From an uncultured Candidatus Saccharibacteria bacterium (GTDB lineage: Bacteria; Patescibacteriota; Minisyncoccia; Phycocordibacterales; DATDWN01), in assembly GCA_964603545.1 (NCBI GenBank), contig CAZRVD010000002.1:46854-110853 (forward strand): a stretch of 64,000 nt of DNA, given 5' to 3'. Below, in pieces: positions 19,832 to 20,737 of the stretch (within the stretch, counting starts at the first letter, position 1; each line of letters opens with the position of its first letter). Under the pieces are notes generated by a model. That model had not been told where the DNA came from, ran no database searches, and saw only the letters and a list, made by a program, of their open reading frames with translations. Position numbers and translations under genes: made by a program.

Positions 19832-20104
19832 ATGAATAAAGCAGGCATTGTAGACGCAGTACATGAAAAATTAGGTGGTACAAAGGTCCAAGCTGAGGAA
19901 GTTGTAGATTTGGTAATAGATTCAATAGTTAATACTCTTAAGAAGGGTGGAGAAGTTTCTGTGGCAGGTCTAGGAATCTTCTCAACTAAGACAAGAGCAG
20001 CTAGACAAGCTAGAAACCCAAGAACAGGGGCTTCAATTTCAGTTCCTGCAATGAGGGTTCCAAAATTCCGTGCAGCTAAGGCACTTAAGGAAGCGGTCAA
20101 ATAG
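19832..20104 (+). CDS. hup: DNA-binding protein HU
   Basis: 90 aa with the HU arm region ARQARNPRTGASISVPA. Confidence 0.95.
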   Translation: MNKAGIVDAVHEKLGGTKVQAEEVVDLVIDSIVNTLKKGGEVSVAGLGIFSTKTRAARQARNPRTGASISVPAMRVPKFRAAKALKEAVK

Positions 20105-20142
20105 TCACATTCGCAATCATTCTTTTGCAAAAGAAATCAAAA

Positions 20143-20168
20143 AGCACCCAATCGGGTGCTTTTTGATT
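20143..20168 (+). terminator. Rho-independent terminator after hup
   Basis: AGCACCC-AATC-GGGTGCT followed by TTTTGATTT. Confidence 0.75.
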
Positions 20169-20189
20169 TGAGTAATTTTATACACAAAC

Positions 20190-20575
20190 GAAAACCGCCA
20201 CCGTTCCCCTGCGTCACAGACGACTTACAGGGAAACGGGGCGGTGGGGTGCGGGCTGGCCAAACTAGAGGTCCGGTCGAAAACTTTATCGAGGTTCACTC
20301 GCCTACTAAAGCCCGTAGAAGATATGCGGGGGCATGCTCAGCGTGCCTACTCGATCAAGGGTTCGTGTGTAGACTTAGAGGTCAACCGTTCCGTATTAAA
20401 TCCTACTCCTGTGAATAAAATTGTAAAGTGGATAAGTGTGTGGGATACGTGGGCTGGGAAACCGGGGGTTTTCCAGTCTATCTGGTTCGATCCCGGGTTC
20501 ATCGGCCACGGATATTTTACTCGTCGAAACAGAAGAAGTTCCGAATCACCTCTTGGTCAGGAATAGTTTTTTGCT
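20190..20575 (+). ncRNA. GC-rich, hairpin-dense noncoding segment with a tRNA-like 3' element (T-arm + acceptor + encoded CCA); family unassigned (tmRNA-like?)
   Basis: A ~16-bp imperfect hairpin CCGCCACCGTTCCCCTG...CAGGGAAACGGGGCGGTGG lies at 20198-20250. Hairpin CTGGGAAA-CCGGGGG-TTTTCCAG. At 20481-20508 sits TCTGG-TTCGATC-CCGGG-TTCATCG-G-CCA (T-stem, T-loop, acceptor 3' strand, discriminator, CCA). It ends in a U-run at 20567-20573. The overlapping ORFs look random. Confidence 0.35.
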
Positions 20576-20630
20576 AAAAACTTTCCCGACCCGACCTCGT
20601 GCCGTCGCACTCCGGTTCACACACGTACGA

Positions 20631-20657
20631 AAAAACCTCCATTCAGGAGGTTATTTT
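20631..20657. terminator. Bidirectional intrinsic terminator (CCTCC-ATTCA-GGAGG flanked by A-run/T-run)
   Basis: AAAAAACCTCCATTCAGGAGGTTATTTT. On the minus strand it follows tRNA-Gly(UCC). Confidence 0.7.
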
Positions 20658-20666
20658 CGTCGTGTG

Positions 20667-20737
20667 TGCGGGATAGCGGAATCGAACCGCTCTCCACAGT
20701 TTGGAAAACTGTTGTTTTACCGATAAACTAATCCCGC
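20667..20737 (-). tRNA. tRNA-Gly (anticodon UCC)
   Basis: Minus strand reads GCGGGAT-TA-GTTT-ATCGGTA-AAAC-A-ACAGT-TTTCCAA-ACTGT-GGAG-AGCGG-TTCGATT-CCGCT-ATCCCGC-A. All four stems pair. CCA is not encoded. Confidence 0.9.

Follow-up and report, generated by a model that had tools for sequence, protein, structure and literature searches.

Background

Integrative elements that target tRNA genes leave attachment-site (att) scars, and the integrase-less remnants of such elements include cis-mobilizable ones. Recombination sites may also be folded single strands, as are the attC sites of integrons and the attP(+) hairpin of CTX-phi. The present report compares with these systems a block at positions 20190-20575 of a 64,000-nt stretch of DNA (the window) from an uncultured Candidatus Saccharibacteria bacterium (contig CAZRVD010000002.1); the block lies between hup and the gene for tRNA-Gly(UCC). 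An original prediction, made from the letters of the window, treated the block as one structured RNA with a tRNA-like 3' end and left the choice open between transfer-messenger RNA (tmRNA, ssrA), a tRNA-like remnant of a mobile element and some other structured RNA. The block has in common with tmRNA that it is GC-rich within an AT-rich genome, measures ~300-400 nt and carries a T-loop consensus with CCA downstream of it. Unlike tmRNA, it has no model match, no acceptor stem, no credible G3:U70 helix, no tag frame and no conservation as a unit, and its tRNA-like part derives from tRNA-Gly rather than from tRNA-Ala.

The block is two unrelated features lying side by side, which had been merged into one observation. 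In our best explanation, to which as a whole we assign a probability of about 0.72, the composite interval reads on the minus strand as tRNA-Gly(UCC), a terminator, a Y-type remnant, an X-type remnant and an independent small RNA gene, and its right half (20436-20629) consists of degraded copies of X and Y, two families of insertion modules described below. The left half appears to hold a small RNA gene on the minus strand, which fits no known class and is supported by comparison with relatives.

Results

Two independent halves

The comparison set comprised 80 Patescibacteria loci (Paceibacteria; metagenome-assembled genomes labelled Zambryskibacteria, Taylorbacteria etc.), which were found via the neighbouring RNase Y gene (rny), and further loci reached through hup homologs; all are cited below by L numbers. 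The rny-hup pair is syntenic across these loci. The distance from hup to tRNA-Gly(UCC) varies from 64 nt to ~3 kb, and the filling differs between genomes; the interval, lying as it does at the 3' end of a tRNA gene, is therefore a hot spot for insertions.

The enrichment in GC claimed for the block is genuine (0.513 vs 0.374 for the whole window), but the unity of the ~380 nt is not. The GC content is 0.57 at 20188-20394, falls to 0.27 at 20395-20435 and is 0.59 at 20436-20508, so that an AT-rich promoter separates a left and a right GC-rich part. The halves occur independently in relatives: the left without the right in L107, and the right without the left in L105 and L111. When the whole block was compared with the 80 loci using nhmmer, one weak match was obtained; the block is not conserved as a unit.

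The candidate small RNA gene of the left half

The candidate small RNA (20186-20394, minus strand, ~205 nt, GC 0.57) is supported by nine homologs, by folding z-scores and by compensatory changes. Its predicted layout starts with a 5' end ACGGAAC near 20394 (the start being placed by the position of the -10 element), continues as a rod-like body that forms an imperfect hairpin, and closes with the hairpin of the terminator and its U-run. The long hairpin at 20194-20244, which had been noticed earlier at the 5' end of the block as an imperfect hairpin of ~16 bp, is present and folds; a U-run (UUUUCGUUUG) follows it on the minus strand only. We take it for the terminator of the small RNA. It abuts the intrinsic terminator of hup (20134-20169, plus strand), for which the terminator scan reports a 16-bp stem followed by a T-run and which has homologous hairpins after hup in relatives.

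A sigma-70-type promoter was found by the promoter scan at 20400-20427 on the minus strand, with the -35 element TTTACA at 20427-20422, the -10 element TAGGAT at 20405-20400 and a spacer of 16-17 nt. The corresponding block, CTTTACAA-N10-AGGAGTAGnATTwwAyAyGGAGG, is kept in eight other genomes while the body of the RNA diverges; its -35 and -10 elements read TTTACA and TAGnAT, again with a 16-17-nt spacer. In the relatives, 130-150 nt that are rich in GC and little conserved separate the promoter from a strong hairpin, whose U-run abuts the hup terminator. The unit is located between hup and tRNA-Gly(UCC) in eight other Paceibacteria genomes, and the scans call both the minus-strand promoter and the terminator in L107, L007 and L011.

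There are nine distinct sequences of the small RNA (the window, L001, L003, L007, L011, L101, L107, L112 and L115), some of them added via hup homologs. A common fold is predicted for 9/9 members: a long imperfect hairpin closed by a 5' end of the GGAGG type, an apical hairpin, an A-rich bulge after it (GAUAAAG and variants) and the terminator. Against dinucleotide shuffles, the z-scores of the nine sense strands range from -2.3 to -7.6, with a mean of -5.1 vs -3.7 for the antisense strands. In alignment A4 of four sequences, 88% of cells are paired vs 75% in shuffles; double-sided pair changes number 19 vs 7.5 in shuffles (none of 500 shuffles reaches 19) and 1-4 in slid controls. Between L007 and L101, compensatory changes affect 14 of 46 pairs, and several G-U pairs shared by the two would be C-A on the other strand. 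Such changes are seen, within subgroups, in alignments A4 and A7. Pfam gave no match for any open reading frame (ORF) in the left-half region, and no ORF is preserved among the relatives.

The close relatives L103-106, L111 and L116-123 cleanly lack the unit, which indicates that the small RNA is an accessory gene. No Rfam family, 6S RNA included, describes it: for the window copy and the L107 homolog, searches at gathering thresholds and at E <= 10 gave hairpin or terminator noise and nothing else. In the metagenome scan the promoter block gave two chance matches, and in viral contigs none or chance matches in GC-rich phages. In L107 (3346-3659; also L108-L110, Zambryskibacteria) the small RNA directly follows tRNA-Gly(UCC) on the same strand, with no terminator between them. 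Judging from this arrangement, the tRNA and the small RNA may be co-transcribed there, and the tandem is probably ancestral.

We also examined and dropped some other identities for the locus. No coding piece downstream agrees with a permuted tmRNA, there is no reverse transcriptase for a retron RNA, no conserved ORF for a type I toxin on the opposite strand and no downstream gene for a leader or riboswitch; RNase P RNA and signal recognition particle (SRP) RNA have no Rfam match at E <= 10.

Putative insertion modules X and Y in relatives

The sequences beside tRNA-Gly in relatives led to the X element, which is present in L011, L001, L007, L004, L018, L002 and L041. In the orientation of the tRNA, an intact X consists of tRNA-Gly, a terminator, an inverted copy of the tRNA end, a two-hairpin core and a direct copy of the tRNA 3' end. 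The inverted arm covers the T loop, the T stem and the 3' strand of the acceptor stem, and the direct copy starts in the T loop and continues into the native trailer. The arms track the resident tRNA of each genome (CCAGA/UCUGG in L007, GGGAG/CUCCC in L018). The Y family has the layout of X with a different core, whose hairpins carry a GC-CGUC-GC apex; it occurs at tRNA-Gly(UCC), tRNA-Gly(GCC) and tRNA-Pro, for example in L020, L112 and L019.

Across all loci, 13 of 67 tRNA-Gly(UCC) genes and 5 of 42 tRNA-Pro genes are accompanied by an inverted copy that reproduces 10 nt or more of the final 26 nt of the tRNA. The inverted copies are located 30-70 nt downstream of the tRNA, and the direct copies 120-230 nt downstream; upstream controls contained no inverted copies except one match from a tandem neighbouring tRNA gene. 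The complementary arms in the modules of relatives are 10-21 nt long.

In L039 (2226-2440) and L047 (1660-1850), an X core lies downstream of hppA, the gene for a pyrophosphatase. There the arms copy the hppA sequence, and the displaced hppA copy retains the C-terminal coding frame and the native terminator. An intrinsically tRNA-like function of X is thereby excluded. Modules at tRNA-Gly and tRNA-Pro include L011:3239-3350, L001:10281-10405, L007:8883-9005 and L018:8400-8678, as well as L020:11778-11985, L016:11168-11325 and L019:10975-11130; those of L060 and L041 are at tRNA-Pro, here tRNA-Pro(UGG). We presume that the module layout was left by an element which inserts where a gene ends and carries a replacement for that 3' end.

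The modules measure 140-280 bp, are gene-less and are too small to encode a protein. No integrase was found near them; in the annotations of L103-L106 and L112-L114, the only gene between hup and the tRNA-Gly region is one for DUF2784. Rfam searches with an intact X (L011) and an intact Y (L020), at gathering thresholds and at E <= 10, returned only hairpin and terminator noise. The X core motif gave no match in viral contigs or chance matches in GC-rich phages. Since the metagenome and viral-contig scans were nearly empty, the families of the small RNA and of the modules look clade-restricted and not phage-borne. In the literature we found no description of the small RNA or of the X and Y modules.

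The GC-CGUC-GC apex recurs on variable stems (L067:1920 and 7954, L019:7560-7620, window 20596-20613 and the apex of the L115 small RNA). Such hairpins occur inside Y modules and as stand-alone intergenic repeats, e.g., two near-identical 90-nt copies in L067.

Probable module remnants in the right half

The target of the modules in the window is tRNA-Gly(UCC) at 20666-20737 on the minus strand (ARAGORN; Rfam tRNA model, 66.6 bits). Of the four tRNAs that ARAGORN calls in the window, this one is the nearest to the block. A bidirectional terminator downstream of it was called by the scan on both strands, with a core stem at 20634-20652 and an extended palindrome at 20620-20666. The hairpin at ~20551-20577, with which the interval of the original prediction closes, is not this terminator; it is AU-rich and internal to a module remnant.

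That remnant is of the Y type (20555-20629, minus strand; GGTCAGGAATAG...GTGC-CGTC-GCAC...GGTTCACACACGTACG). Together with the terminator it has a nearly identical counterpart beside tRNA-Gly in L105/L106 and in L111, there too with truncated remnants of X behind it, and it is homologous to the Y modules at tRNA-Gly and tRNA-Pro in L020, L112, L019 and others.

The X remnant comes next. Its inverted arm copying the tRNA 3' end (T', 20477-20508, plus strand) reads TCTATCTGG-TTCGATC-CCGGG-TTCATCG-G-CCA and is the very stretch that had been described as T-arm, acceptor and CCA; TCTATCTGGTTCGA matches L011, L001 and L007 at the equivalent position of the module. The first hairpin of the X core lies at 20454-20476 on the plus strand (CTGGGAAACC-GGG-GGTTTTCCAG; alignment A2). 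The sequence TGGGAAACCnnnGGTTTTCC occurs only once in the window, against an expectation of 0, and occupies the same place in L002, L004, L011 and L018. Beyond the core, at 20436-20448 on the minus strand, there is a displaced and slightly mutated direct copy of the tRNA-Gly 3' end with its trailer (GUAUCCCACACAC vs the tRNA end UAUCCCGCA + CACAC). As a direct repeat it is degenerate (GUAUCCCACACAC at 20448-20436 vs UAUCCCGCACAC). This displaced end directly adjoins the promoter of the small RNA, a position that fits an ancestral tandem of tRNA-Gly and small RNA, as seen module-free in L107.

The X motifs of the window are unique and in the correct order. Compared with intact copies, ~48 nt of the core, containing the second hairpin, are absent between 20476 and 20477, and the outer part of the arm has drifted, giving TTCATCG-G-CCA. 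As the copy has lost its middle and its arms are mismatched, it is most likely inert, and the T-arm, the 'acceptor' and the 'CCA' would be relics.

The consensus GGTTCGAWYCC occurs five times in the window, namely in the four real tRNAs and at 20484-20494, compared with 0.02 expected by chance. This excess argues that the T-arm piece is derived from a tRNA and did not arise by chance.

Tests of the tRNA-like proposal

The letters described earlier are all present: TCTGG-TTCGATC-CCGGG at 20481-20497, TTCATCG at 20498-20504, G at 20505 and CCA at 20506-20508, with CGGTGGG at 20241-20247. Their interpretation as tmRNA is not upheld. ARAGORN in tmRNA mode finds no tmRNA, even at the 90% threshold. 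Rfam has no match to the tmRNA model at E <= 10 on either strand; at gathering thresholds it reports only the four tRNAs across the window, and for 20100-20680 on both strands at E <= 10 its matches are noise resembling terminators, none of them to tmRNA, RNase P, SRP, 6S, a group I intron or a tRNA. We agree that a convincing tag frame ending in hydrophobic-Ala-Ala is missing: in a translation of 20241-20485 in three frames, the peptides before stops end in PN, AY, RV, PY, LL, KL, SG and CE. The ends of the block do not form a 7-bp acceptor stem of the tmRNA type with G3:U70. The T-loop is of the GTTCRANYC type (GGTTCGATCCC at 20484-20494), which is common to all tRNA-derived sequence and not specific to tmRNA. 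The encoded CCA, taken earlier for a hallmark, is fortuitous: 0/4 tRNA genes of the window encode CCA. CGGTGGG can serve as the 5' acceptor partner only through three G-U pairs, and it sits in the terminator hairpin of the opposite-strand gene. No fetched locus has a tRNA that ends like the arm in the window.

Of the fallback identities, the tRNA-like mobile-element remnant proved correct for the T-arm piece, which we attribute to an insertion module carrying a tRNA end; 'some other structured RNA' is apt for the left half, with the strand being minus. At lowered thresholds ARAGORN calls a 'tRNA-Pro(ggg)' at 20431-20504 and a 'tRNA-Ser(cga)' with a 168-nt intron at 20241-20508; neither passes at default. 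These calls show that module arms can yield false tRNA-like calls.

Other observations

The window is identical to GCA_007376085.1 and to two further public assemblies, and an exact-protein look-up with its hup returned the same organism only (100% identical). The organism also occurs in ERZ27284378 and in the run SRR8863434. At 1050-1691 of the window, on the minus strand, there is a 213-aa ORF of GC ~0.5-0.57 (vs 0.37 for the genome) without a Pfam match. It looks like a real foreign protein-coding gene and not a structured RNA, and it is probably the 'first GC-rich segment' of the earlier description. In several relatives, a palindromic block resembling a miniature inverted-repeat transposable element (MITE), CCAAATCTGGCGCA...CCCGCAGAGTACTAAATGTACA...CATCCAGATTTG, is inserted between the stop codon and the terminator of two genes: after hup in L011 (1981-2100), L001 (8052-8180) and L005 (8170-8300), and after hppA in L016 (~1044-1170). 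This block is absent from the window.

Discussion

Interpretation of the small RNA and of the modules

Comparison with relatives shows the gene structure and the predicted fold of the small RNA. It would be transcribed from its own sigma-70-type promoter and would end at the intrinsic terminator. Our best guess is that it acts in trans as a stable RNA and most likely binds a protein through the apical motif; this is suggested by the lack of an ORF, of a downstream gene and of an antisense partner, and by the fact that the apical motif is the most conserved part.

As for the modules, each intact one would provide its target with a new 3' end (in tRNAs, everything from the T loop on) and a terminator; after these come the inverted copy of the end, the conserved core of hairpins and the original 3' end, now displaced. 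The order of target, spacer, inverted arm, core and target is the one expected if a small circle with the 3' end of the target recombined with the chromosomal copy within the T loop. The inverted arm would pair with the direct copy in one strand and thus rebuild the target duplex as a recombination site. The presence of an inverted copy in every module at three kinds of target suggests such single-strand pairing of both copies, as in integron attC sites or the attP hairpin of CTX-phi; we give this reading a rather low probability. One may go further and propose that X and Y are new gene-less miniature site-specific mobile elements of Patescibacteria, programmable through their arms and served, as CTX-phi and integron cassettes are, by a recombinase supplied in trans, and that, separately, the neighbouring 205-nt RNA is a new clade-specific stable RNA; we consider this unlikely.

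Several observations weigh against our explanation of the interval. The start and the 3' end of the small RNA are predicted from sequence; only nine members are known, and the close relatives are without the gene. For the copy in the window, it is the antisense strand that has the more stable fold (-84.9 vs -75.3 kcal/mol). When the covariance model R1 was made from three members, it picked up L003 and missed the copies of the window, L001 and L115, even with the filters off. The homology of the RNA body in the window consequently rests on the promoter block, synteny, architecture and the short apical motif. As concerns the modules, a hidden Markov model (HMM) of intact X cores gives the window copy a score that is not significant, which we ascribe to the deletion in that copy; the fold of the X core is ambiguous as to the strand; and neither a recombinase tied to the modules nor an excised form was seen.

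Alternative explanations

Some readings place a gene on the plus strand. A divergent or reduced tmRNA, or an aminoacylatable tRNA-like RNA, with its 5' end at ~20241 and its 3' end at the encoded CCA, would account for the T-arm consensus, the 7-nt stretch, the one base and the CCA, and the whole block does fold better than shuffles on that strand (z = -4.1, vs -2.8 on the minus strand). We nevertheless regard its probability as negligible, considering that the tmRNA searches stayed blank at lowered thresholds too, that no tag-like frame exists and the tRNA genes of the window lack CCA, that the acceptor pairing with its three G-U pairs overlaps the terminator of a conserved opposite-strand gene, that there is no conserved plus-strand promoter, that the halves are separate in L107 vs L105 and L111, and that the T-arm piece aligns with modules whose arms copy tRNA-Gly or hppA. 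A plus-strand tRNA gene at 20241-20508 interrupted by a divergent group I intron and missed by standard tools deserves mention, since tRNA-Asn and tRNA-Asp of Patescibacteria carry group I introns that can escape RF00028 and ARAGORN (PMC13011429), and the 'tRNA-Ser(cga)' above is called at the 90% threshold (-ps90). However, at the default threshold ARAGORN finds no tRNA when introns are allowed, no canonical cloverleaf could be rebuilt, there is no D-arm and C occupies position 33 of the anticodon-like loop. RF00028 has no match at E <= 10, although divergent introns are reportedly missed by such models. The supposed 5' exon and intron coincide with the minus-strand unit of promoter, RNA and terminator conserved in eight genomes, and the 3' 'exon' is homologous to arms copying tRNA-Gly and not a serine tRNA. 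We find this very improbable. The original prediction had mentioned an acquired GC-rich ORF as what would refute it, and an open frame of 136 aa (20156-20566, plus strand) does span the block and is annotated as a gene in three public records (L098-L100). Yet it has no Pfam match, its GTG start falls within the hup terminator, it is kept in no relative, with indels throughout, and it crosses the promoter-like AT-rich gap and two unrelated conserved elements. No peptide evidence for it was seen, nor, among close relatives, a conserved frame whose substitutions are mainly synonymous. That the block encodes this protein has scarcely any chance; the annotated hypothetical protein, whose frame takes in a terminator, the RNA gene of the opposite strand with a promoter, and scars of modules, is almost certainly spurious.

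Other readings accept the two halves and interpret them differently. The left half could be a mobile GC-rich imperfect palindrome, i.e., a DNA element, with the 50-bp 'promoter block' as its end or as a protein-binding site. The clean presence or absence in close relatives (L105 vs L112) is what one would expect of it, conservation does extend past the two promoter hexamers, both strands fold well and the locus is an insertion hot spot. On the other hand, the hexamers are correct in sequence, spacing and orientation to the terminator in every member, the promoter of tRNA-Gly in the same genome has an identical layout as read from its sequence, the G-U pairs favour the minus strand, and the boundaries show neither target duplications nor terminal repeats; we hold the DNA element to be quite unlikely and prefer the small RNA gene. 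A slim chance is left to the view that X and Y, including the copy in the window, are functional read-through RNAs of tRNA and hppA genes (3'-trailer RNAs or tRNA mimics). Some compensatory change in the core hairpins and a G-U pair in the Y stem that favours the sense strand agree with it, as does the conservation of the cores across genomes whose RNase Y is only ~70% identical. It is opposed by the arms, which copy any adjacent gene, protein-coding ones included, and whose 3' ends vary and keep no acceptor; by the displaced gene ends and the nested, truncated copies, which are signatures of DNA insertion; by the terminator between the target gene and the element; and by the large deletion in the window copy. 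A glycine-charged analogue of tmRNA was also considered for X and Y and dropped, in view of the missing tag frame, the variable 3' ends and the identical design at hppA.

Significance

The analysis does away with a call of tmRNA or tRNA-like RNA that was false and with a 136-aa 'gene' of public assemblies that is spurious. To a phylum in which few RNAs have been described, it adds a small RNA family that fits no known class and is comparatively well supported. It also indicates that the 3' ends of tRNA-Gly, tRNA-Pro and hppA in these reduced genomes accumulate nested tiny modules with arms copied from the target. If the modules move in the manner proposed, they would constitute a site-specific element of exceptionally minimal design, and they would give rise to false tRNA-like hits when genomes are scanned.

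Comparison with known systems

The left half resembles 6S RNA and other rod-shaped RNAs in its length (170-210 nt), its own promoter, its imperfect hairpin closed at the ends and the rapid divergence of a sequence whose fold is kept. It differs from 6S RNA in that no model matches at E <= 10, the predicted internal loops are at most ~5 x 5 nt with no large central bubble, the gene is missing in close relatives, and the conserved part is the apical hairpin with its A-rich bulge. With the group I intron tRNA genes of Patescibacteria (PMC13011429) the block shares the phylum and tRNA-like exons missed by standard tools; unlike in those genes, no cloverleaf can be reconstructed, RF00028 matches no intron core at E <= 10, and an opposite-strand gene occupies what would be the 'intron'.

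Unlike integrative elements, the modules are of 140-280 bp with no gene and no integrase, always have the inverted copy of the target end next to a hairpin core, and repeat this design at hppA. Their likeness to the att-site scars of tRNA genes lies in a direct repeat of the tRNA 3' end that has its start in the T loop, in the supply of a replacement end, in presence/absence polymorphism, and in old copies that decay, one within another, at a single tRNA. They depart from attC and CTX-phi in that the arms copy the 3' end of a gene instead of a fixed core site and, in the window, no longer match, and in that no IntI- or Xer-type partner was found. As in those systems, the inverted arms could pair in one strand and rebuild the target duplex, the sequence between the arms is structured and variable, and the order of target, inverted arm, loop and target is the one expected after single-strand integration.

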